Source: a virus. Taken from it: DNA of 43,707 bases. Positions 8,297 to 37,177 of this stretch are shown here, one piece after another. Below the pieces are notes generated by a model. The model had not been told where the DNA came from, searched no databases, and saw nothing but the letters and a program-made list of their open reading frames with translations. The stretch lies in the UHGV virus genome UHGV-0360526. One strand, given 5' to 3'. Made by a program: the position numbers and the translations under genes. The first letter of the stretch is position 1. Every line of letters begins with the position of its first letter.

Positions 8297-8827
8297 GTGA
8301 TAGCACGACTTGTGAGTTGGTTTAAGCAATGTCGGGCAAAGGCGGTCGAATGGCCGCCTATTACGCATGACGAGAAAGTAGTTTCTTTTTTGGAATATAA
8401 TAAAGACTTGAAAAGATTAGGTGAGTTAATGCACTTAACGGAACGTCAGGTTTTTGCTAAGATTTCAAGTAGTGCTTTACGTAAACGAATAATTCCTCAC
8501 CTATCCTTTTCAGGGCAGGTTTTTGCAATAGCGACAGAGGAATTTTTATCGGTGGTGGGCAATATAACTCCACGTATACGGTACTCGGCTACGGGTACAT
8601 CTGATGCGGTCGGTACAGTTGATTTCGGACGGTTGTATCAGAGCATTAAAAGTACGGGCCATATACATGTTAAACGGGTATCAGAAACTTCTGTGGTGAT
8701 TTATCATCGTACTGAGCATGATTTGTTAGGCCGAGTTATAACGCTAACAAATTTACGCAGTTTTTATGTTGACTTACTTACGGAGTTTTATCCAGAACCT
8801 TGGTGCTTTTTAAATGCGAATAAATGA
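8297..8827 (+). CDS. hypothetical protein (GTG start)
   Basis: 176-aa ORF beginning at GTG immediately after upstream stop. Confidence 0.4.
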   Translation: MIARLVSWFKQCRAKAVEWPPITHDEKVVSFLEYNKDLKRLGELMHLTERQVFAKISSSALRKRIIPHLSFSGQVFAIATEEFLSVVGNITPRIRYSATGTSDAVGTVDFGRLYQSIKSTGHIHVKRVSETSVVIYHRTEHDLLGRVITLTNLRSFYVDLLTEFYPEPWCFLNANK

Positions 8828-9026
8828 CGGATATATCATCTCAGCAATTGTTTCAACTACACTGATTGTAGCGATGTTGATGTTCTACGTTAAGACGTCT
8901 GACGAATCACGTAGAGACTCCCTTTATCGTGAATGTATGTCAGGCACTACTGTAGATAATCCACGTTACGCTGAATTAGTAATGGCGTGTACGGAATACG
9001 CTAATCGAATGGGAGGAGGGAAATGA
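8814..9026 (+). CDS. small membrane protein (one predicted TM helix)
   Basis: 70-aa ORF with hydrophobic stretch IISAIVSTTLIVAMLMFYV. Confidence 0.4.
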   Translation: MRINDGYIISAIVSTTLIVAMLMFYVKTSDESRRDSLYRECMSGTTVDNPRYAELVMACTEYANRMGGGK

Positions 9027-9220
9027 AAATTTGGTTACCGATTCTAGTATTTATCCTTATCGCAGGGGCACTCGCAAGTGCTGAGTTAGATAGCCGTACT
9101 TTAGAAACGAAACGTGAGTTGTATCAGGACTGTATAAAGGATTATACTCCAGGTACAGAGCTTCATGCACAAGCTGTAAGAAGTTGTGCGCTGATGGCTG
9201 AAACGCAGACTCGTTCCTAA
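9023..9220 (+). CDS. small membrane or secreted protein
   Basis: 65-aa ORF with N-terminal hydrophobic segment KIWLPILVFILIAGALASA; ATGA overlap with upstream gene. Confidence 0.45.
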   Translation: MKIWLPILVFILIAGALASAELDSRTLETKRELYQDCIKDYTPGTELHAQAVRSCALMAETQTRS

Positions 9221-10681: not shown

Positions 10682-10887
10682 ACTTGACCGTTTTACCGGT
10701 AATGGAGGCCAATGCAAACTTTTATCAAAACTTAACAATCCCAAATCATGAAGCGCGGAGTTGGGCATCACTTTCACGTTAGAAGATGATGGATTAAAAC
10801 CAGTATAATAATCCGCTTATAAAAAATATTGGGGGGGGGTAAAGCACCTCTCCAGATCTTTTAGCTCCCGATAGAGAATTAAATATC

Positions 10888-16080: not shown

Positions 16081-18015
16081 ATGATGTTGGTGCGCGATAT
16101 TAAAGATTACACCGAACTAACAGCATACGCGTTAAATTCGTTGTTAACACTTGACAAACCAGAAATATTCGACGAATCCGTCACGATGACGGTAGACCAA
16201 GAAACGAACTATGATTACGTTGGTCAAGTTACTGGTCGTGTTTCTGTGGCTAGTCCCACTGAATATAAAATTGCGATGTATACCTATACAACGGGAGAGT
16301 ACGCGCAAGGTGAATCACCATTAAACGAATCAGGTGAGTTTAATTTTAAACGAACATGGCCGGGGACAAAACAATTTCGTTTAATTAGAATTGCTGATGG
16401 CAAATGGATTTCTACGTTAGAGTTCCCATTGTGCATACGTAGTTACCATATGCCAGAAAACGCGGACCCTGAAACGATCAGGATTATGAAAGATCGTTGT
16501 TATACTTACGATCAGGCTGTTGCTACTCTTGCATTAATGGCCTACGGTCATGAAAAGGTAGAACAGTTTGTAAAAGGTCTTTTAGCGCTGGTCAATGAAG
16601 ACGGTGGTGTTAAATTCTACGTAAACCGACTTTCGGCTAAATCTTCGCGAAATTATTACCGTATGGGCAACGTCGCGTGGGTACTTTACGCTTTAGCTTT
16701 TTATCTTGAAAAATTTCCTGCCGGAAATCTAGCGGCACAGGTTCATGAAAAATTAACACTTTCCTTAACCTGGCTGGAAACTTATAAGGTAACGCAGGAG
16801 ACAGATCGCCGCAAAGGTTTATATCTTGGTGGAAAGGGTCGTTTTGTTACTACCGAATCAGGCGAACGTGTTTTTGAAGAAGACTACGTTGCACCTTTTG
16901 CGGCTTTAGAACATCAGGTAGATATTTGGTTCCTGTTCGAATTACTAGGGCGCGTCGGTTTTGATGCATACCAACAAAAAGCAGCGGACTTCGGTAATAG
17001 AATAGTAGAAGCTTTTTGGATGGAAGACGAAGGACGTTTTCGTCAGGGTGTGAGAGAAACAGAAGATGATAACGCAGCTGCGTTAGATCAGTCCAGTTGG
17101 GGTGGGCTATTTGCGGCCAAATTTAAACCAGAGTACGCCGAACGTTGTCACGCTTTTATGGAGAAATTTCGTTCGGAAACCTCTGAGTGTCGTGGCTACA
17201 CACCATACAAAACCGAGTTTGGTTACCCTACTGCTAAAGAAGGGGTGTGGGTTGAAGGTGCCGCCGGTGTTGCGTTATTCGAACGTCAGTTAGGAAATGA
17301 TAAACGTGCTGTTGAGATCATTAACGACTTAGATGTTCTTTTATCAGAATACGGTTATCGTGATTCTTGCGATGATCCTACCTACGATACGCTGCCGCCG
17401 TGGTGGTCAACCACAAACACTGCATGGGTGCTTTTAGTCTGTAAGCCAAGTAATTTTTGGCTTGTAGATAAGCCTCCTTTAACGGAGAGATATAATCCGC
17501 AGAATAAATTTTTACCAGATATTTCATTAAACTCTTTAAATCTTGTAATTTCGTTAGTGAATCACGATTTAAAAACAGATTACACGGAGTCTGATGTTGA
17601 AATCAGCAAGATTTCACTTAGCACGGAAGAAAATCGTGACACAACAGCGATAATGGAAATAAAACGTCCTAATAAACGGTCGTTACAGATCTATTACAAC
17701 CGTTTAACCGCAGCGCGGTGGTTAAACCAGCAACCTATTCTGGTAAAGGTCACCGGTAACGGTTTTACTACACGCGATCTGATCGACGGAATTAACGCGG
17801 CTTGTGGTTGTAATTTACAACCCGACGATCTTACTGACGACACATTTACCGTAGGGAAAGACGCTGTAACGTTACAGGTTTCACCCAACTCGTTAGGTTA
17901 TAAAGGTCAATTCTCCGTTCTGGTTTTCGGTAACGATGAAGAAGCCGCTGTGGTAAAAGACAACGATTTAATCGTTACCGCAGATAACCGTGTCTTAACA
18001 TTCGGAGGTCACTAA
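16081..18015 (+). CDS. putative (alpha/alpha)6-barrel glycoside-hydrolase-like virion protein with C-terminal fibre-docking-like domain
   Basis: 644 aa; central region has repeated helix-pair signatures (YDQAVATLALMAYG, NVAWVLYALAFY, LDQSSWGGL, TNTAWVLLV) typical of six-hairpin glycosidases; C-terminus homologous to ORF 10121-10681; enzyme assignment is tentative. Confidence 0.35.
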   Translation: MMLVRDIKDYTELTAYALNSLLTLDKPEIFDESVTMTVDQETNYDYVGQVTGRVSVASPTEYKIAMYTYTTGEYAQGESPLNESGEFNFKRTWPGTKQFRLIRIADGKWISTLEFPLCIRSYHMPENADPETIRIMKDRCYTYDQAVATLALMAYGHEKVEQFVKGLLALVNEDGGVKFYVNRLSAKSSRNYYRMGNVAWVLYALAFYLEKFPAGNLAAQVHEKLTLSLTWLETYKVTQETDRRKGLYLGGKGRFVTTESGERVFEEDYVAPFAALEHQVDIWFLFELLGRVGFDAYQQKAADFGNRIVEAFWMEDEGRFRQGVRETEDDNAAALDQSSWGGLFAAKFKPEYAERCHAFMEKFRSETSECRGYTPYKTEFGYPTAKEGVWVEGAAGVALFERQLGNDKRAVEIINDLDVLLSEYGYRDSCDDPTYDTLPPWWSTTNTAWVLLVCKPSNFWLVDKPPLTERYNPQNKFLPDISLNSLNLVISLVNHDLKTDYTESDVEISKISLSTEENRDTTAIMEIKRPNKRSLQIYYNRLTAARWLNQQPILVKVTGNGFTTRDLIDGINAACGCNLQPDDLTDDTFTVGKDAVTLQVSPNSLGYKGQFSVLVFGNDEEAAVVKDNDLIVTADNRVLTFGGH

Positions 18016-27885: not shown

Positions 27886-28476
27886 ATGGCCGAACGTTGG
27901 ACTAAAGAAGGTATTATTGGATCAAAAACAGATTTAGAGGGTGGGTACGTTAATGACCCCGACGATAAAGGTGGGGAAACCTGTCACGGGGTAACACTGA
28001 CAACCGCACGCGAATACGGGTATAAAGGAAGAATGAAAGATCTGACCCGTGCGCAAGCGTTTGATATTTACGATCGCGGTTGGTGGAAGAAACTTAAACT
28101 CGATGAGATTTTCGCTATCTCGCCCTTACTCGCAGACCGGATGTTTGATTTTGCTATTAACTCTGGCCGCGTTAACTGTGTGAAATCGTTACAACGTATT
28201 CTCAACGTTTTAAATAACGAAGGGAGACTTTACGCAGATATTGACACCGACGGGGGCATGGGGCCTAAAACGCTAGGTGCCCTGAATGCTTATCTGAATT
28301 ACCGTAAAGGTGAGGGGTTAGGCATCTTAATCTTTGCGTTAATCTCACACCAGGTAACCTACTACACAGAAATCTCCGAAAAACGTAAGAAGAATGAAAA
28401 ATTCGCTTACGGCTGGTACGGACGCGTGTACAGGGAAATGCCGGATTATGTAGTGAAGGCGGGGTTAGTAAAATGA
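27886..28476 (+). CDS. GH108-type muramidase (endolysin-like) with C-terminal peptidoglycan-binding region
   Basis: 196 aa; N-terminal LEGGYVNDPDDKGGETCHGVT matches the glycoside hydrolase family 108 signature; C-terminal DGGMGPKTLGALNAYL resembles the associated PG-binding domain. Confidence 0.8.
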   Translation: MAERWTKEGIIGSKTDLEGGYVNDPDDKGGETCHGVTLTTAREYGYKGRMKDLTRAQAFDIYDRGWWKKLKLDEIFAISPLLADRMFDFAINSGRVNCVKSLQRILNVLNNEGRLYADIDTDGGMGPKTLGALNAYLNYRKGEGLGILIFALISHQVTYYTEISEKRKKNEKFAYGWYGRVYREMPDYVVKAGLVK

Positions 28477-28577
28477 ACTGGTTTGCTAAACTCTTAGCAC
28501 TATTGTGGAAAGCGTTAACGTCTGGACGGAAACGTAAAGACGAAAAACGCGGGTACGAATTTTTCTGGTTTCTTTAA
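28473..28577 (+). CDS. small ORF (34 aa) overlapping muramidase stop; possible small lysis-associated peptide
   Basis: ATG 28473 forms ATGA overlap with the muramidase stop; MNWFAKLLALLWKALTSGRKRKDEKRGYEFFWFL is amphipathic/hydrophobic; too short for the ORF track. Confidence 0.25.
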   Translation: MNWFAKLLALLWKALTSGRKRKDEKRGYEFFWFL

Positions 28578-28592: not shown

Positions 28593-29258
28593 ATGGAAAA
28601 GCTTCAATATAAACGTTTAGACAATAAGTGGTTTGTATTAACGGAGGATTACCATTATCCGTTTACGTTACGCGAGATTTATCACGACCACGTACACTTA
28701 GACCGTGCGGTTTATTTAACGGGTGTATTGCCTGACACACAACTGTGGTTAACCGCACCGAAAGGGTTCGTTACCGATTTAGCGTCAATTCCTGAACACC
28801 TCCAGGGAATTTTCCATCCTGACGGACCGTGGGCACCTGCGGCCTGCATTCACGACCTACTTTATCAAAAATGTAACACGGAGCGGAGCTATCCCATGAC
28901 ACCGGGCGGTAACGTTTCGCGTATTATCGATAAAGAGTTCTCTGACTTAACATTCCTGCGTATTATGCAGTCGTTGGAAATCTCGCCTTATATCTGCCAA
29001 ACATTTTATAAGGCCGTTGTTGAATTCGGCTGGGATTCCTACGTAGATCCTAATGCAGAACCATCCTACAACACTAACGCGTTTCGTACGTTAGATTACA
29101 ATCGAAACTATTTATTCGTTCGCGAGTTTAAGGAGCCTGCAATTCCTGACCACGAACGTATTGATATCACCACAGAACAACCCGTTAATGTCAAATACCT
29201 GAACATCAAACGTGCTTTTCTGTCTGGGAGGGAAGATGTTTCATCCAAATCCGAGTAA
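28593..29258 (+). CDS. hypothetical protein (possibly DUF1353-like)
   Basis: Listed ORF 28584-29258; ATG 28593 follows RBS aaggaaagg; motif FVTDLASIPEHLQ reminds me of DUF1353 but not verified. Confidence 0.4.
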   Translation: MEKLQYKRLDNKWFVLTEDYHYPFTLREIYHDHVHLDRAVYLTGVLPDTQLWLTAPKGFVTDLASIPEHLQGIFHPDGPWAPAACIHDLLYQKCNTERSYPMTPGGNVSRIIDKEFSDLTFLRIMQSLEISPYICQTFYKAVVEFGWDSYVDPNAEPSYNTNAFRTLDYNRNYLFVREFKEPAIPDHERIDITTEQPVNVKYLNIKRAFLSGREDVSSKSE

Positions 29259-29751
29259 CTTTAAACTCAAAGAGTTAGTACCACAATCGTACATCGCCAA
29301 ATACGGTGATTCTGCAATTCGGTTTATGAACCCGTTGTTAATGATTTCGCTACAGCAGATTCGTAACCGTTTCGGTAGAATGGTGATTAACTCAACCGCC
29401 GCACAACAACGCGGACTAAGAACCTTAGATTTCTTTATTAATCAAGAAAAGCCTAAGGGCGGCAGTTATAAACAACGTGCGTTACAGCTTTACGCCGATT
29501 CAGGAAGTCAACACAAATTCGGTAACGCAATTGATGCAACGTTGTTGGATAGCACCGTAAAACAGGTTCACGACTATATCGCTGCTAACCCTGACGAGTT
29601 TCCGTTCATTCACTTTATTGAATGTGACATCAGTTGGTTACACATCGACGTTCGTAACCAGCCTAACATTACTTTCTGGTCACCAAATCGAGGTACTGTG
29701 AAGGTTGTTAAGCAAAAACCAATCGATTGGAGCGCCTTAGTCGAGATTTAA
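29236..29751 (+). CDS. peptidase M15-like (zinc D-Ala-D-Ala carboxypeptidase fold) cell-wall peptidase
   Basis: SQHKFGNAIDA (H-x6-D zinc ligands) and downstream WLHIDVR match the M15 family signature; ATG 29236 with RBS ggaggg. Confidence 0.6.
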   Translation: MFHPNPSNFKLKELVPQSYIAKYGDSAIRFMNPLLMISLQQIRNRFGRMVINSTAAQQRGLRTLDFFINQEKPKGGSYKQRALQLYADSGSQHKFGNAIDATLLDSTVKQVHDYIAANPDEFPFIHFIECDISWLHIDVRNQPNITFWSPNRGTVKVVKQKPIDWSALVEI

Positions 29752-29834: not shown

Positions 29835-29875
29835 TACCCTACTCCCGATAAGGAGTAGGGTAGTTTTTATTATTC
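29835..29875. terminator. bidirectional terminator between convergent genes
   Basis: Stem taccctactcc-cgataa-ggagtagggta flanked by A/T runs on both sides; lies between plus-strand stop 29751 and minus-strand stop 29870. Confidence 0.7.
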
Positions 29876-30352
29876 CGCAGGATGGAGCATTGTTCCAGTG
29901 TCAGGCGCTACACCTTCTATACAGCGGAAGAACGTAATGCCTTTACCATCGCCCGTTTTATATTCTAAAGTAGAATACGCAAAAGTTGGTGTTTTTGAAA
30001 GTAAACCATTCACACGGTAGTAACGTTGTCCTGTGATAGGATCGATATTCCCATTAACTTTACCTAATAAATCTTTATAAAGTTGGGGCGACTCAATCTT
30101 ACCATTTGGCCAAGTGGCTACCCAGTTAGCACCAGTATCGACTACGGTTACTGAACCCAACATGAGGTTAGTCGAATTGACGACAGGTTTATAATTTACA
30201 AAATCTTGCTCTACACCCATACAGGTGTAAATAACCATGTCGTGTGGCTCTACGGGTACAGTCGAGAATTGACCGTTAGCGGTGGGTTGTAGGGCACATC
30301 CTGCTAATGAAAAAACACCAACCATAGCGATAAGAAAACGTTTTAGCATGTT
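29870..30352 (-). CDS. lipoprotein (signal peptide with lipobox LAGC), possible superinfection-exclusion or receptor-masking protein
   Basis: Listed ORF to 30409; ATG at 30352 with RBS aaggtga gives MLKRFLIAMVGVFSLAGCALQ, a classic lipoprotein signal; function inferred from context only. Confidence 0.6.
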   Translation of the reverse strand, partial: NMLKRFLIAMVGVFSLAGCALQPTANGQFSTVPVEPHDMVIYTCMGVEQDFVNYKPVVNSTNLMLGSVTVVDTGANWVATWPNGKIESPQLYKDLLGKVNGNIDPITGQRYYRVNGLLSKTPTFAYSTLEYKTGDGKGITFFRCIEGVAPDTGTMLHPAE

Positions 30353-30434
30353 TTCACCTTCTATAAAAAAGTTAAAAATAATAATTTTACAGACGACCCT
30401 TACTGCCATCTGTCATAACTATTAAAACCACTTC

Positions 30435-30440
30435 TATAAT
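30435..30440 (+). promoter_or_regulatory. candidate sigma70-like -10 box (TATAAT)
   Basis: Perfect TATAAT about 47 nt upstream of ATG 30488 in the divergent intergenic region; -35 match is poor. Confidence 0.25.
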
Positions 30441-30487
30441 CCGAACAATACTATGCAATCCACCCTGCCACACACGAGGTAAAAACG

Positions 30488-31033
30488 ATGGCTAAAGCTT
30501 TCAATCTGCAGCTCATTGAAGCTGTTAAAGCTAAAAACCCTGAAACTGCTTCTAAACTGACCGTAAATGATGTCGATTTCGGGGCCGTAGAAGCTTACAC
30601 CCCGACCGGTAAAAGCGACGCCCGTAACACTAAAGTTGTCCTGACAGCGAAAGAAAGCAGCGCTAACTTCACCGGTAATAAAGAATTTCATTATATCCGT
30701 CTGGCTTCCGCTAACCTGATCGGTGCCAAAGCTTACCAGCAGGAAGGTAGCCTCGAACTGGAAAACGCTGCCATTGTAGCCAAACTGAACGAAGAGATGG
30801 TTACTAAAGGTTATGTAGATGACGCGTTTGCAGAAGGCGAACTCACTATTGAGAAAACTGACGGCGAAAGCGGTGCTAAAGTTTACACTGTCAAAGTAAA
30901 CGATGCGCACATCAAATTCTTAGCCGGTACCATTGCCACCTTCACCTATACCAACCCGGTTCCTCCGAAGACAGCTCTGAGCGGGCTGGAAGGTGAACTC
31001 GATGGTTTCACCGCACCGGGTATCGGGGGCTAA
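30488..31033 (+). CDS. hypothetical protein, member 3 of the paralog family
   Basis: 181 aa; RBS gaggt; C-terminal GELDGFTAPG shared with member 4. Confidence 0.6.
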   Translation: MAKAFNLQLIEAVKAKNPETASKLTVNDVDFGAVEAYTPTGKSDARNTKVVLTAKESSANFTGNKEFHYIRLASANLIGAKAYQQEGSLELENAAIVAKLNEEMVTKGYVDDAFAEGELTIEKTDGESGAKVYTVKVNDAHIKFLAGTIATFTYTNPVPPKTALSGLEGELDGFTAPGIGG

Positions 31034-31037
31034 TTAA

Positions 31038-31070
31038 ATCGGGGGGGGGTAACCTCCCCGATATTTCTTT
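31038..31070 (+). terminator. hairpin containing G9 tract (weak terminator)
   Basis: atcggggggggg-taacct-ccccgat followed by atttcttt. Confidence 0.4.
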
Positions 31071-31097: not shown

Positions 31098-31628
31098 ATG
31101 GCTGCTACTAACCAGATGATGTTGGTCGCGCTTTATAATGCTGCTAACACTGAGCTACCACATCAGGTTACTGATAAAGAAGTGTCCTTTGGTCTCCCTA
31201 CTGCGCTGGAAGGCGAAAGTAAGAATACCAAAGTTACCATGACTGCACTGCCAGGTTCTGAGAATTTCAAAGGCGCTATCGAACTGCATTACGATCGTCT
31301 GGAACCGGGAGTTGTAGGACGTATTGAACTAACTGACGATCTGTCTCGTTGGGAAGATCAAAACGAATTGCGCGCATGGTTACAATATTACATCAACAAA
31401 GTAAAACCTGACGATGCTATCGCACCAGCTGACGTTTCTTATTCTACCGAAGACCAGAAAGACGAACATGAAAACGTCACTCTGCGTACGGTAACGTGCA
31501 CCGTTACTGAAAAGAACCTCCGTTATAAACCGGGCGTAATGGCAACTTTCGTAATTACACCGAAAGTTGTTGATAATCGTATTGACCTGGCCACCACCAA
31601 CGGTGAGCTGGACGGTTTTACGTCCTAA
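31098..31628 (+). CDS. hypothetical protein, member 4 of the paralog family
   Basis: 176 aa; RBS aagga; C-terminal NGELDGFTS. Confidence 0.6.
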   Translation: MAATNQMMLVALYNAANTELPHQVTDKEVSFGLPTALEGESKNTKVTMTALPGSENFKGAIELHYDRLEPGVVGRIELTDDLSRWEDQNELRAWLQYYINKVKPDDAIAPADVSYSTEDQKDEHENVTLRTVTCTVTEKNLRYKPGVMATFVITPKVVDNRIDLATTNGELDGFTS

Positions 31629-31641
31629 GAAAAAATAAAAA

Positions 31642-31682
31642 TACCTACCTCCTATTACGGGAGGTAGGTATACTTTTTTTTC
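31642..31682. terminator. bidirectional terminator between convergent genes
   Basis: Stem tacctacctcc-tattacg-ggaggtaggta with A-run upstream and T-run downstream; between plus-strand stop 31628 and minus-strand stop 31691. Confidence 0.8.
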
Positions 31683-31690
31683 GCTGTCGA

Positions 31691-32362
31691 TTACAGCCCT
31701 TGCTCTAACGCAAACGCTTTTATCGAATCGTAATCACGTGCTTCAGCCCAAGCCCTGACTTCTCTTTTCTGCTCAGACATTGCGTGGTGTAGTCTTTGAT
31801 CGCGCTCAACGATTGCTGCCAGCAACGTCTTGCACTGTTCTAACGTAAACGGTTCAATACGGGTGTTGTTAGCCGTTAACCAATACGCTGGCGCAGTTTC
31901 TGACTGAATATAACGACTCAGTGCTACCTGTGACTTCTCATCTGCCTGGAAAGTGAAATCACCTACCTGAATCTCAGCATAGCGTGCATCCTGATAACGG
32001 AATTCCAAAGCGCTTAGAATTTTCTGAACATCGGTAAAGATGTACCGCACCGTGGAACGTAAACCTGTACGAATTTCTTCCAGGTCAATCCCCAACGTGT
32101 CGTTAACAAAGTCTTTCGCTTTCTGTAGCGTAAACCGTGCTTCGATTTCAGACATGTCGTAGTTACGCATTTGTTCCAATGCTTCGCGATCAGACATCCC
32201 ATCAATCAACTTATAGTGCAGTAACGCACAAAACCCTGTACGGCCGTGATCTTCACTACCGATTTTCTCCATGTAGTTACCATGACGGTCAATCGGTAAA
32301 TCATGCGCAAAATAACGGCGACGGATTTCTTCTTTCGTTAAGCCTTCACCAGTAGCAGACAT
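31691..32362 (-). CDS. hypothetical protein (last gene of minus-strand operon)
   Basis: 223-aa ORF overlapping the start of the upstream gene. Confidence 0.55.
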   Translation of the reverse strand: MSATGEGLTKEEIRRRYFAHDLPIDRHGNYMEKIGSEDHGRTGFCALLHYKLIDGMSDREALEQMRNYDMSEIEARFTLQKAKDFVNDTLGIDLEEIRTGLRSTVRYIFTDVQKILSALEFRYQDARYAEIQVGDFTFQADEKSQVALSRYIQSETAPAYWLTANNTRIEPFTLEQCKTLLAAIVERDQRLHHAMSEQKREVRAWAEARDYDSIKAFALEQGL

Positions 32363-32910
32363 TCATCGTCTCCTTTAATCAACCCTAATTCGATTAACAA
32401 TTCAAAATCGATATGACGGAATCTTGTGTCGAAGTCCGATTCCCAATCGATACGGATACCCTGGCATTCTTCTGGCGTTAGCTCAGGAAAAATCACGGTA
32501 TTAAATTTCTCTCGCTCATCGTAAAACCCATCAATCGGTGAGTTCGGGTTACGTGTTGCGAAGATAGTAATGCCGGGGAAGGACAATGCCAACACAGTGA
32601 TAGATTCTGCGCTGGGTTCGCTTAAAGAGCGGCGTAGAAACGCAATTTTGTGACGTGGGAAATCCAATACCCGTTCTTCAAACCCTGGGTTACGTTTTTC
32701 AATTTCCGCGACCGACAGGTCAGTAAGTTCGGTGCAGTACATTGGGATGATTACAGTCACGCCGTGACGAATCAGTAAGCGTTTTACGTCATCGGTAAAA
32801 TCTTCACCGTTAATCACCACATAACAACCGAATAGCTTACTGTTTTCCAGAAACTTATCCAGAAGTCGAATTCTACGCTTCGTAATATTGTTGATCAGAA
32901 TTGGTTTCAT
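32338..32910 (-). CDS. hypothetical protein
   Basis: 190-aa ORF; start overlaps the 3' end of the radical SAM gene. Confidence 0.5.
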   Translation of the reverse strand: MKPILINNITKRRIRLLDKFLENSKLFGCYVVINGEDFTDDVKRLLIRHGVTVIIPMYCTELTDLSVAEIEKRNPGFEERVLDFPRHKIAFLRRSLSEPSAESITVLALSFPGITIFATRNPNSPIDGFYDEREKFNTVIFPELTPEECQGIRIDWESDFDTRFRHIDFELLIELGLIKGDDECLLLVKA

Positions 32911-34195
32911 CTTTGGCTTCTCTTAATAATTTTTCCTTTTGGGCACGTTCACGAACACAGCGTGGGCAATAACACATGCTCGTGTCGTGGAACGCTTTTG
33001 CTGACGTCGTACCCATCTTCTGTTTCCAGTATTCCGCCACCATCAGTTTCGCTGTCGTCCAGCCACACTGACGACGTTCAGCGTGATACGCTTTACGGTC
33101 TTCTAACGTTCCTTCCCCGTTCTCGTAAGAAGCCGCCGCACAGCTACCACAAGCGTGTTTCATCGGACAACCTAAACAGGTCTCTGGGTAGTTGGTATAT
33201 TGCGTTTGAATCTCTTCTAACAATTTACCGTTGTCCAGACTGACGAATTCCCGACCTACCAACTCAAACACCGCAGAACGCGACGTTACCGTTGACATAA
33301 AGCGGTTACAGCCAAAGATCTTACGGTCAAATCCTAAGCACGTCATGTGGGTTAACGTCCCGCAGAACGGACGTAAACGTTCTGGGTTCAACCGTACAGT
33401 GTCATTATACAGTAACTGGTCACGCCAGTTCGGTTCCCAAATCGTATCGAAATCCAACCCTTCTGGAATGATGTGCGATAAGATATTACGTGGATTGGTG
33501 TGTAATCCTTTTTCAACCCAATAATCTATCACATCCATCATCTGTAAAGCGATTGATGTCGCCATGCTACGCGGCATAACGTCTTCGAAGGTTACGTTCC
33601 CAGAAATTGTCCCACCGCCAGTAATGTCAATTAATGACTTCATCCCCGCAGCATAGAACGGCAGTGTTTCTAACGTAAAGGTCGCTTTTACGCCGAGTTC
33701 TGCAATACCAACCTCTTTTAAGTAATTATAGCCACGTACTGCGGCTTCGTAAGAACCCTGACGCGTCGTTGTGAAGATACGATAGCGGTCATGGGATTCA
33801 GGTAAACCATCAATCGAAACCCCAACCGAAAGTTTGTCTTTCCAACGTTCTACAATCTCACGGTTCAACGGACGATCTAACAGCGTTCCGTTCGTGGAGA
33901 TACTAAACATAAACGGTCGGTTGTGTTCTTTACACAACTGCTCAGCGGTTTCAAACGCAGCCAGCAGCAGTTTAGGCTGCATGAACGGTTCACCACCGAT
34001 AATGTCGATAATAACTTCGACATTCGGTTCGTTTTTATCACGTTCAAAACAGGCGTGTAAGAAATCAACAATGTCAGCCGCTTTGTTGTTACGTGGGTAC
34101 TTACGTTCGTAGCAATATTCGCAGTCCAGGTTACACGAAAGGTTGGTTACGATCTGATACGTTAACTGCTTAGGGAATTCATTTACTTGACTCAT
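32873..34195 (-). CDS. radical SAM enzyme with C-terminal SPASM-like domain (peptide-maturase-like)
   Basis: 440 aa; CNLDCEYC (CxxxCxxC) near N-terminus, GGEP SAM-binding motif, C-terminal Cys clusters CGTLTHMTCLGFDRKIFGCNRF and CLGCPMKHACGSCAAAS. Confidence 0.8.
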   Translation of the reverse strand: MSQVNEFPKQLTYQIVTNLSCNLDCEYCYERKYPRNNKAADIVDFLHACFERDKNEPNVEVIIDIIGGEPFMQPKLLLAAFETAEQLCKEHNRPFMFSISTNGTLLDRPLNREIVERWKDKLSVGVSIDGLPESHDRYRIFTTTRQGSYEAAVRGYNYLKEVGIAELGVKATFTLETLPFYAAGMKSLIDITGGGTISGNVTFEDVMPRSMATSIALQMMDVIDYWVEKGLHTNPRNILSHIIPEGLDFDTIWEPNWRDQLLYNDTVRLNPERLRPFCGTLTHMTCLGFDRKIFGCNRFMSTVTSRSAVFELVGREFVSLDNGKLLEEIQTQYTNYPETCLGCPMKHACGSCAAASYENGEGTLEDRKAYHAERRQCGWTTAKLMVAEYWKQKMGTTSAKAFHDTSMCYCPRCVRERAQKEKLLREAKDETNSDQQYYEA

Positions 34196-35102
34196 TTGCC
34201 GCCCCTCTATTACGTCCTGCCATCACTACGCGACGAATATATTCGTACGCCTCTACACCGATAGAGAAGGCCAGTTGGTTACATCCCGATTCCAGAACGT
34301 TAGGTGCATTCTGGAGTTGGTGCTCACCACCGTCTGCATTAATCCAAAGACTTTCGCTGCAAACGTTACACCCTTCTTCAAACACTTTACTTACTGTAAA
34401 GCCGCATTCACGACCATTTACTACATTCAGTCGTTCAATGTTGTCCTGAACCTGATAGTAGCCGTAAATAAAGTTCATGACGTGGTCAGGCGATAAAGGT
34501 TTTGGCATTTTCGCGTCTAAGAGTAACGTCATTGCACGGAAACCGTAATGGTAAATCGCGCTGTGCAGCTGAATAATATCTTCGTGCCAGCGTTTGTCCC
34601 CTAAACGGTCCCGTGTCAGGACACCCCAAGTCTGGACATTATCCAGCTCGTAGATCGTTTCCAGTGCTTCGTAACAGCCTTCGTCAATAAAGCGCATAAA
34701 CGGGCGCTCAGACGACTTAAACCCATCGATGCTAACGTAGACATTGTCAAACTGTTTTAGCAACGGGAGATGCGATTTACGCATCTTTAAGCCATTGGTA
34801 TACAACTGGTGTTTGAGTTCTGGACGAATCACTTTTAATTCGTCAACAAACGCCTCAATTTTACGGGTTGCCAGTAATGGCTCACCACCCGTCCACTGAA
34901 TTTCGGTAATGGTTGGATTAGCTTCCAGCGCTTCCAAAATTCGCTCACGTTGAAACTCTCGCGGAGAATCTTCACGATTCATGTAATAGGCTCCACCGCA
35001 GAAGCTACAATCCAGGTTACACTTGGACGTAGCGACTACGGACAATACGGTGGGTTTATCGTATAAACGATTCGATAACCTTGGTTCTGCATTGGTTGTC
35101 AT
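34179..35102 (-). CDS. radical SAM enzyme (second, shorter paralog-like)
   Basis: 307 aa; CNLDCSFC (CxxxCxxC), GGEPLL motif, C-terminal Cys residues ECG..GCNVCSES..GCNQ; 17-nt overlap with downstream rSAM gene. Confidence 0.75.
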   Translation of the reverse strand: MTTNAEPRLSNRLYDKPTVLSVVATSKCNLDCSFCGGAYYMNREDSPREFQRERILEALEANPTITEIQWTGGEPLLATRKIEAFVDELKVIRPELKHQLYTNGLKMRKSHLPLLKQFDNVYVSIDGFKSSERPFMRFIDEGCYEALETIYELDNVQTWGVLTRDRLGDKRWHEDIIQLHSAIYHYGFRAMTLLLDAKMPKPLSPDHVMNFIYGYYQVQDNIERLNVVNGRECGFTVSKVFEEGCNVCSESLWINADGGEHQLQNAPNVLESGCNQLAFSIGVEAYEYIRRVVMAGRNRGAANESSK

Positions 35103-36160: not shown

Positions 36161-36367
36161 TTACCTTCCCCCCGCACCTTTACTACAGCTACCACTGCAC
36201 GACCAGCTACATCCGCCGTTACAGTTATAATGGCTTAAAGGTAAACCGGCAAGGTTATTGGTTGAAGACACGGTGCCCTGGTTTGCAATATAGTTGTTTG
36301 CGTTAGCGGTCGTAATATACCCTTCCGCTGTTACTAACCGATCACGAAGGTTCTTAAGGCTAATCAC
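36161..36367 (-). CDS. CxxxC-repeat Cys-rich peptide 3 (short core)
   Basis: Listed ORF 36161-36433 overlaps peptide 2 out of frame; GTG at 36367 preceded by gggagg gives VISLKNLRDRL..., matching the leaders of peptides 1 and 2; core CNGGCSWSCSGSCSKGAGGR. Confidence 0.5.
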   Translation of the reverse strand: MISLKNLRDRLVTAEGYITTANANNYIANQGTVSSTNNLAGLPLSHYNCNGGCSWSCSGSCSKGAGGR

Positions 36368-36369
36368 AA

Positions 36370-36768
36370 TTACCTCCCAGAACAGCCACCGGAGCAAGCA
36401 CCAGAGCAGCCTGCAGAACAGTTTCCTACACACGAGTTAGAACAACTCCCCGTACAGCTTCCTGAACAGCCACCAGAACAGGTATTCGAACATCCACTAC
36501 AGCCTGCACTACAACCTGATACACAGTTTGCAGAACAGGAAGAACCACAGCCGCCTGATGCGTTCCCTGTACAACCACCAGAACAGCTCGAACAGGTCCA
36601 GCTACAGCTCCCACCACAGTCATAGTGGTTGCGAGCTTGCCCACCGAATAAGTCTGCGTTGTTCGTCGCTTTCCCACGAATATAGTTTTGTACTGCACCC
36701 GTATTCTTCAATGCAGTGTTGTCAATGTTATTTAGCCGCGCTTGTAGCGCAGGTAATCCAATTGCCAT
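36370..36768 (-). CDS. CxxxC-repeat Cys-rich peptide 2 (putative radical SAM substrate)
   Basis: 132 aa; ~50-aa leader MAIGLPALQARL... then ~80-aa core of about 20 Cys, mostly in C-x-x-x register with Ser/Gly between. Confidence 0.6.
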   Translation of the reverse strand: MAIGLPALQARLNNIDNTALKNTGAVQNYIRGKATNNADLFGGQARNHYDCGGSCSWTCSSCSGGCTGNASGGCGSSCSANCVSGCSAGCSGCSNTCSGGCSGSCTGSCSNSCVGNCSAGCSGACSGGCSGR

Positions 36769-36778
36769 TTTTCACCTC

Positions 36779-37177
36779 TTAGGTTGGGCCAGAACAGCCA
36801 CCGGAGCAAGCACCAGAACAACCCGTAGAACAACGGCCCGAGCAAGCACCTCCACAGGTCCCACTGCAACCTGAGCAGCCGCCGGAACACGTTGAACTAC
36901 ATCCAGTACACTGGTTACCACACGCGGATGAACAGCTACCTACACACACCGACGTACAGGTGCCCGAACAACTCGTACAGCCATGCGTACAACCGTTTGA
37001 GCACGTCCAGCTACAGCTTCCCCCGCAGTCTAACCGACTTGGCGTCCAACCCGAAAAAGTGTCGGCGGCATTATGTGCTTTCGACGCAACTTGCGGATCA
37101 ACACGTGGGCCAGTTGCCATTTGGTTCTCTACGTTGGTGATTCGGTCACGTACATTTTTAACACTGATCGCCATCAC
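36779..37177 (-). CDS. CxxxC-repeat Cys-rich peptide 1 (putative radical SAM substrate)
   Basis: 132 aa; leader MMAISVKNVRDRI...SRLDCGG then core with 21 Cys (CSWTCSNGCTHGC...CSGACSGGCSG); RBS aagga; ATG at 37174 also possible. Confidence 0.6.
   Translation of the reverse strand: MMAISVKNVRDRITNVENQMATGPRVDPQVASKAHNAADTFSGWTPSRLDCGGSCSWTCSNGCTHGCTSCSGTCTSVCVGSCSSACGNQCTGCSSTCSGGCSGCSGTCGGACSGRCSTGCSGACSGGCSGPT

Follow-up and report, generated by a model that had tools for sequence, protein, structure and literature searches.

What is a solitary lipoprotein gene, set on the opposite strand to the genes around it, doing between the lysis and host-recognition genes of a jumbo phage? The question is raised by the virus genome UHGV-0360526, of which a stretch of 43,707 nucleotides (the window) was analysed; it belongs to a genome of ~225–250 kb from the SPN3US group of Chimalliviridae. 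The gene lies on the minus strand at 29870–30349 and encodes a predicted phage outer membrane lipoprotein. Phage lipoproteins placed near receptor-binding or lysis genes are often superinfection-exclusion or receptor-masking factors, and an initial annotation of this DNA put forward such a role, considering an outer membrane spanin (o-spanin) less likely. We find that the gene belongs to a small, conserved family that keeps company with host-recognition genes; the protein probably alters the surface of the infected cell rather than bursting it.

A predicted outer membrane lipoprotein

The first 18 residues of the precursor (M1–C18; 30296–30349, minus strand) read MLKRFLIAMVGVFSLAG followed by the lipobox cysteine. 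K3 and R4 make up the n-region, FLIAMVGVFS the h-region and L15-A16-G17-C18 the lipobox, with the Cys18 codon TGT at 30296–30298 (minus strand) and an Ala at +2. This sequence agrees with the pattern [LVI][ASTVI][GAS]C within the ~35 N-terminal residues, bearing out the textbook LAGC lipoprotein signal first described here. No other open reading frame (ORF) within the 43.7-kb window has a lipobox, and the signal peptide is the sole hydrophobic segment of the protein. Across 24 homologs the lipobox is conserved and its Cys invariant, while the +2 residue is A, S, Q, V or K, and in none of them Asp. A Sec-type signal peptide of this kind would be processed by diacylglyceryl modification of Cys18, cleavage by signal peptidase II and N-acylation. 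Under the Lol rule of enterobacteria, lipoproteins without Asp at +2 are sorted to the outer membrane; as the residue here is Ala, the Lol pathway should carry the protein to that membrane. Counted from Cys18, the mature protein has 142 aa, in keeping with the earlier estimate of ~140.

The coding sequence comprises 159 codons plus a stop and runs on the minus strand from the ATG at 30347–30349 to the stop codon at 29870–29872; the ORF scan, PHROG 9559, the homologs and the substitution pattern all mark it out. The gene end originally assigned, 30352, needs correcting, as it lies one codon too far: translation of 29870–30352 starts Asn-Met-LKRF. A longer version of 179 aa from an ATG at 30409 was also considered and rejected, having neither a ribosome-binding site nor homolog support, because every homolog begins MLKR or MKR. 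The Shine-Dalgarno sequence GAAGGTGA, as read from the DNA, is found at 30354–30361 (minus strand), 4 nt before the ATG at 30347–30349, and the AAGGTG/AGGGTG block at this site is kept in close relatives.

Distribution and selection

Against the model of PHROG 9559, annotated 'unknown function', the protein scores a full-length match at E = 2.3e-66 and Goslar gp88 scores one at E = 3.2e-21. By sequence it is the ortholog of SPN3US gp159 (SPN3US_0159) and of Goslar gp88 (Goslar_00088 = HOV27_gp088); these belong to the same family and show no difference in kind. Sequence searches gathered 17–24 homologs, and the 55 phage records that contain them are all of jumbo phages infecting Erwinia, Salmonella, Escherichia or Proteus. 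A profile search of 1.84 billion representative proteins returned just 16 matches. On this evidence the family is confined to the SPN3US/Goslar clade of ~220–250 kb enterobacterial Chimalliviridae. The nearest relative of the window is a 225-kb IMG/VR contig, whose lipoprotein is 96% identical; orthologs in named phages are 47–59% identical and those of the Goslar type 30–35%. Databases already list the family, under 'hypothetical protein' or 'lipoprotein' and without a function, the UniProt name 'Lipoprotein' being given to the orthologs in Erwinia phages Asesino, Kwan and Huxley. Scans of the window protein against Pfam, NCBIfam and PADLOC assigned it to no family, nor did a Pfam scan of all 24 family members at E values up to 10; PADLOC-DB gave 0 families at E up to 1 for both the window protein and Goslar gp88. 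In a profile search against PDB sequences the sole match was to the signal peptide of TrwH, and neither MliC nor PliC was recovered.

The ratio of non-synonymous to synonymous substitution rates (dN/dS) against a 91%-identical relative is 0.13, falling to 0.07 for the mature part, with most of the changes lying within the signal peptide. These values indicate that the lipoprotein is under purifying selection, and together with the homologs in 55 phage records they identify a real gene, not a chance ORF. Compared with relatives at three distances, the lipoprotein is 91/71/47% identical vs 99/96/78% for the neighbouring M15-like gene; it diverges at a pace like that of the DUF7941 genes and faster than the adjoining enzymes.

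Some relatives show a more uneven history. In the P0002-type lineage only two genes, that of the lipoprotein (29870–30349) and a DUF4376 gene (31691–32362), are saturated at synonymous sites, with amino acid identities of 71% and 67%, respectively, against 90–97% for flanking genes. Saturation of just these two genes points to mosaic exchange or replacement of both, and they may co-vary. Separately, two library entries of ~170 aa (P0025 and P0029) hold segments of SPN3US gp159 in permuted order, as if block-scrambled; these are probably artefactual gene models of the source assemblies.

Genomic context

The initial annotation reasoned from phage lipoproteins placed near receptor-binding or lysis genes. 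Comparison of 15 SPN3US-like loci (from IMG/VR) and 5 Goslar-type loci strengthens the link with receptor-binding genes, fibre or DUF7941 neighbours being constant across the 20 loci; the endolysin is not a constant neighbour. In the window, a GH108 endolysin gene (27886–28476), a DUF1353 gene and an M15-like gene (29236–29751) lie on one side of the lipoprotein gene and two small DUF7941 genes on the other. The DUF7941 gene divergent from it (30488–31033, plus strand; 181 aa; Pfam DUF7941, PHROG 4862) is the ortholog of SPN3US gp160. A DUF7941 gene of ~175 aa is divergently paired with the lipoprotein gene in 15/15 SPN3US-like loci, across a gap of 125–168 bp, and this gp160-type gene is the one neighbour kept in every SPN3US-like relative. 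The downstream neighbour varies among the same loci (M15-like in six, DUF1353 in five, other genes in four), and no M15-like gene was detected in the four loci of the ChrisDB/Caitlin/Huxley type or in five other SPN3US-like loci. In the ChrisDB/Caitlin/Huxley type (4/15) the endolysin block lies beyond the DUF7941 genes as seen from the lipoprotein gene, which has DUF7941-containing operons to either side. Compared with the window, this type has the endolysin and DUF1353 block in inverted orientation, with the DUF4376 gene on one side of it and the DUF7941 genes on the other.

The Goslar-type loci differ in arrangement and agree in company. In all five, the lipoprotein gene is co-oriented with tail-fibre, Caudo_TAP, DUF4376 or DUF7941 neighbours, standing either directly after a P1-S-like tail-fibre gene and a fibre-chaperone gene (Caudo_TAP or DUF4376), or flanked by genes for long DUF7941 proteins that carry leucine-rich repeat, DUF285 or TIM-barrel domains. 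No recognisable lysis gene was found near it in these five loci. DUF7941 is a family found only in chimalliviruses, the proteins of which form head-to-tail filaments; anchoring to the peripheral baseplate has been proposed for these, and a host-recognition 'cloud' suggested (bioRxiv 10.64898/2026.04.21.720040). SPN3US gp160 is present at >300 copies per virion (PMC5694885). The lipoprotein gene is thus always embedded among host-recognition genes and is not tied to lysis genes.

The gene also appears to form a transcription unit of its own, as originally described. Downstream, a bidirectional intrinsic-terminator-like hairpin at 29835–29862 (11–12 pairs, 6 of them G-C, with T-runs on both strands) separates it from the convergent M15-like gene on the plus strand, in agreement with the bidirectional terminator that had been noted. 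Upstream, a divergent intergenic region of 138 bp (30350–30487), common to the lipoprotein gene and the DUF7941 gene at 30488, holds blocks conserved among close relatives and presumably carries the promoters of both genes. A sigma70 promoter scan returned fewer sites than shuffled sequences did; TTTTTAC, which occurs upstream of several genes, is not enriched (13 sites vs 18 expected), and neither is the phiKZ-late-like motif WTATGH in intergenic regions (P = 0.74). It is reasonable to describe the lipoprotein gene as the only one on the minus strand in the first 31 kb, since every other minus-strand ORF of ≥90 aa in that part falls within a longer plus-strand ORF.

Predicted structure

AlphaFold2, supplied with the family alignment, predicts eight beta-strands at a mean predicted local distance difference test score (pLDDT) of 79.6, rising to ~90 in the core, which would form an eight-stranded beta-barrel domain at approximately residues 31–144 (29918–30259, minus strand). 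In the 24 sequences, compared down to 30% identity, the positions that are invariant or nearly so are the lipobox Cys, Cys43, Cys143 and several Gly and Arg residues. The two conserved cysteines fall in strand 1 (Cys43) and strand 8 (Cys143) of the predicted barrel and probably form a disulfide staple, as the first and last strands adjoin in a closed barrel. The most conserved part of the protein is a loop between predicted strands 4 and 5, S87-P-Q-L-Y-K-D-L-L-G-K97 (30059–30091, minus strand), which is identical in 18/18 SPN3US-type sequences, while identity falls to 45% elsewhere. Goslar-type sequences keep ES.QLY of this motif. The loop is well ordered in the model (pLDDT 84–91) and is likely to be a binding surface.

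The predicted barrel is of a generic kind. Foldseek returned no PDB match below E 0.01, and a lipocalin of the Blc type was considered and rejected, with no Pfam match and Foldseek lipocalin matches at E ≥0.028 and TM-scores ≤0.36. A search of BFVD retrieved the protein's own family and weak matches, one of them an RB49 protein annotated as an LprI-like lysozyme inhibitor (E 1.7e-3). The model weakly resembles MliC, PliC and Brucella PhiA, which are outer membrane-anchored or periplasmic eight-stranded barrels with a disulfide between first and last strands, an architecture that the present protein may share, and of the solved small barrels PhiA is the closest by root-mean-square deviation and identity. 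PhiA is a flattened eight-strand barrel with a Cys76–Cys154 disulfide; it did not act as an inhibitor in vitro, and SGxxY does not occur in it (PMC8334348). This lysozyme-binding motif is similarly absent from the alignment of the present family. None of the 24 members matches PF09864 (MliC) at E up to 10, and hhalign gave a probability of 0.5% for the family profile against an MliC/PliC alignment whose E. coli sequence was verified against PDB 2f09. The MliC-like character would therefore be a likeness in fold and topology alone.

Abundance in virion preparations

Proteomic data exist for orthologs in two phages. The Goslar cryo-electron microscopy preprint lists gp88 among ten unmodelled proteins that it estimates at >200 copies per virion and describes as 'lacking a clearly predicted function'; in its Table S4 the protein has 20 peptides and 78% sequence coverage, and its copy number is put at ~740 per virion (range 490–1160). 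Dividing label-free quantification area by mass gives 79 for gp88 vs 110 for the major capsid protein. The text of the preprint makes no mention of a lipoprotein. In the SPN3US virion proteomes, gp158 and gp160 are listed and gp159 is not.

A lipoprotein that is exported has no access to particles assembling in the cytoplasm, and the Goslar preparation contains much host envelope material. The A–E portion of its peptide sheet has 29 rows for OmpC, 19 for OmpA and 17 for OmpF, as well as Lpp and Pal, and one OmpA peptide reaches an area of 2.2e5 vs 5.3e5 for the best gp88 peptide. Contamination with nucleus shell and PhuZ is reported by the preprint authors themselves. The most economical explanation is that the outer membrane holds very large amounts of gp88 at lysis, and that fragments of the envelope carry it through the purification. 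Given its lipoprotein signal and a preparation so rich in outer membrane proteins, the assignment of gp88 to the Goslar virion needs re-testing.

Relationship to spanins

A phage lipoprotein gene near an endolysin gene calls to mind the o-spanins of the lambda Rz1 type, which are outer membrane lipoproteins of Gram-negative phages; the present gene too lies near the endolysin in some genomes. Unlike Rz1, the protein has no partner gene and is predicted to be folded rather than Pro-rich and extended. No overlapping, embedded or adjacent gene for a type-II membrane protein (an inner membrane spanin, or i-spanin) was found at the lipoprotein locus, and no ORF with a transmembrane domain lies nearby. 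The 142-aa mature part is predicted as an eight-stranded barrel with its confident core rather than the short Pro-rich segment of an o-spanin, and it has no C-terminal transmembrane domain, so that a u-spanin like T1 gp11 was rejected as well.

The whole genome of SPN3US (JN641803) was also assembled and scanned for spanin-like genes. It encodes gp204, with an N-terminal transmembrane domain, a coiled coil and a Pro-rich tail, and gp205, a Pro-rich protein of 159 aa with the lipobox LLTGC, whose gene starts 10 nt after that of gp204 (180017–180976; 31518–32477 in locus L015). From this sequence anatomy we infer that gp204 and gp205, both of which PHROGs lists as unknown, are a separated two-component i-/o-spanin pair. 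As SPN3US has a spanin-like pair of its own, the lipoprotein is not needed as an o-spanin, and the earlier judgement that this role is unlikely stands. SPN3US gp198 (175058–175780), for its part, is a second lysin, of the transglycosylase type, with a signal-like N-terminus.

Two further observations concern lysis genes. In Erwinia phage RAY (KU886224; locus L017), a lipobox ORF beside the DUF7941 genes was examined as a positional analog of the lipoprotein gene and rejected, as it is Pro-rich, overlapped in spanin-like fashion and not homologous. The spanin-like region (16158–16932, minus strand) adjoins the DUF7941 cluster; within it the lipobox ORF (16158–16661) begins in a different frame inside gp15 and ends at the stop codon of gp14, the annotated start of which looks wrong. 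In the window itself, a 34-aa cationic amphipathic ORF (28473–28577, plus strand; MNWFAKLLALLWKALTSGRKRKDEKRGYEFFWFL) has an ATG that shares bases with the stop codon of the endolysin gene (ATGA). Two relatives, in which it is called as a gene, keep it at 97% identity. It has no PHROG match, and to judge by its sequence might be a membrane-active peptide for lysis, resembling a disruptin or a holin.

A possible role at the cell surface

In phage T5, Llp is an outer membrane lipoprotein whose gene lies beside that of the receptor-binding protein; it binds FhuA, and guards both against superinfection and against the loss of progeny on debris. Reasoning from gene position and predicted localisation, we tentatively favour a role that follows the same logic, and could well be wrong, in which an abundant outer membrane lipoprotein masks or alters the phage's own surface ligand. 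The protein would be produced in large amounts together with the fibres, and would act stoichiometrically in the envelope of the infected cell on a structure recognised by the phage fibres or tail. Superinfecting particles would thereby be excluded, and after lysis the progeny, each with micrometres of sticky filaments, would be spared from loss on cell debris. The apparent abundance of gp88 at lysis in Goslar fits such a stoichiometric role.

The likeness to Llp (PDB 8a60, 7qjf) is that of a phage outer membrane lipoprotein with a small, disulfide-containing, beta-rich domain, encoded in its own transcription unit beside receptor-binding genes. The two differ in that the mature domain here has 142 aa instead of 61 and is predicted as an eight-stranded barrel, a different fold; and T5 llp is expressed early, whereas expression of the present family is possibly late in Goslar. 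Homology to Llp was rejected, as hhalign aligned just 12 signal-peptide columns at a probability of 16% (the Llp sequence having been checked against PDB 8a60_B, 'lytic conversion lipoprotein'). Cor of T1, phi80 and N15, the exclusion lipoproteins of prophages and lambda Bor are comparable as small outer membrane lipoproteins, encoded beside tail-fibre genes or as morons, that alter the cell surface; the present protein matches no Pfam, PHROG or PADLOC model of these and is carried by a strictly lytic jumbo phage.

Several observations weigh against a masking role. The receptor of SPN3US is the flagella (PMC11428620), which a lipoprotein facing the periplasm cannot mask directly, although a secondary receptor is possible. 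The invariance of the SPQLYKDLLGK loop across phages of Erwinia, Salmonella and Proteus suggests a conserved target and not a variable receptor, and the solved small barrel that best matches the model is a PliC-like protein. Beyond the signal peptide, hhalign detects no relationship to Llp, and no sequence link to Cor, Bor, spanins or any PADLOC or Pfam model emerged. The promoter motif tests are non-significant, so they give no expression timing for the phage of the window. Finally, the Goslar ortholog was reported as virion-associated and abundant, and its authors did not put this down to contamination.

A rival possibility is that the protein is an outer membrane-anchored periplasmic regulator of a peptidoglycan hydrolase, akin to MliC, PliC or PhiA. 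It might bind and restrain the GH108 endolysin or M15-like peptidase of the phage itself, or lysins that come from superinfecting virions or from lysed cells nearby, preventing premature lysis or lysis from without in the style of T4 Spackle. The predicted eight-stranded barrel with cysteines on its first and last strands, the weak BFVD match to the RB49 LprI-like protein, and the occurrence of the endolysin and M15-like genes within two genes in the window and most SPN3US-like genomes all speak for it. Set against these are the absence of MliC matches among the 24 members, the negligible hhalign probability and the missing SGxxY motif; PhiA, moreover, is itself non-inhibitory in vitro, and endolysin adjacency is gone in 4/15 SPN3US-like and 5/5 Goslar-like loci. 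We regard such a regulator as unlikely, if worth keeping in mind. The same unconserved endolysin linkage tells against a component that disrupts the outer membrane after the endolysin has acted, be it an atypical o-spanin or a new kind of disruptor. An outer membrane lipoprotein gene ~1.4 kb from the GH108 endolysin gene is suggestive of this, as are the apparent late abundance of the Goslar ortholog and the situation in RAY, where the overlapped spanin-like pair next to the DUF7941 cluster indicates that lysis genes can occupy such regions. The confidently folded barrel, the lack of a type-II membrane-protein partner and of a C-terminal transmembrane domain, the classic separated-spanin anatomy of gp204/gp205 in SPN3US, and the alternative membrane-active candidate at the endolysin stop codon make it improbable.

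The remaining explanations take the Goslar copy number at face value. A true particle-associated protein might bind DUF7941 filaments or tail fibres after lysis, or by some other route, and travel with the virion, which would agree with the ~740 copies, the 78% coverage and 20 peptides of gp88 and with the invariable linkage to DUF7941 genes. Its chances are slim, as an exported lipoprotein is topologically apart from virion assembly in the cytoplasm, OmpC, OmpA and OmpF are plentiful in the same preparation alongside nucleus shell and PhuZ, and gp159 is missing from the SPN3US virion proteomes. A more specific version, to which we give little credence, has the lipoprotein bind the DUF7941 filaments, for instance to cap, release or tether them at lysis, and leave on the particles, so accounting for the Goslar copies.

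Other features of the window

Terminator-like hairpins built on a run of nine G (GGGGGGGGGTAACCTCCCC) are found at 31038–31062 and at ~10830–10860, and a similar G9 element lies upstream of the gene for a tail fibre of 1532 aa. Two 132-aa paralogs are encoded at 36370–36768 and 36779–37177, with a partial copy at 36161–36433 (all on the minus strand); their C-terminal ~75 residues are nearly all Cys, Gly, Ser and Thr in CxxxC repeats (CGGSCSWTCSSCSGGCTG...). They adjoin two radical-SAM genes (32873–34195 and 34179–35102, minus strand), an arrangement kept in SPN3US gp163–166. To judge by sequence, the Cys-rich paralogs and radical-SAM genes resemble a substrate and its maturases of the kind known from ribosomally synthesised and post-translationally modified peptides, specifically sactipeptides. 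Within the structural gene block, two overlapping small ORFs on the plus strand (8814–9026, 70 aa; 9023–9220, 65 aa) look paralogous; both encode a single transmembrane segment at the N-terminus, and neither has a PHROG match.

Significance for nucleus-forming jumbo phages

Nucleus-forming jumbo phages serve as models and as therapy candidates, and their envelope functions, namely superinfection exclusion, progeny release and lysis control, are almost unstudied. What is new here is the corrected gene model, the orthology of gp159 and gp88, the predicted barrel fold, the invariant association with DUF7941 and fibre genes, the arguments against a spanin, and the caution over the virion assignment. 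The lipoprotein gene offers a compact, conserved and tractable handle on these functions, its product being abundant and predicted to be exported, and the gene itself genetically locked to the DUF7941 filament system. Should the protein instead prove to be a partner of the filaments, no lipoprotein before it would have been shown to work outside the cell as part of the host-recognition apparatus of a tailed phage. If the Llp-like role is true, masking of receptor or ligand would have evolved convergently, on the basis of an unrelated fold, in a lineage of phages very different from that of T5.

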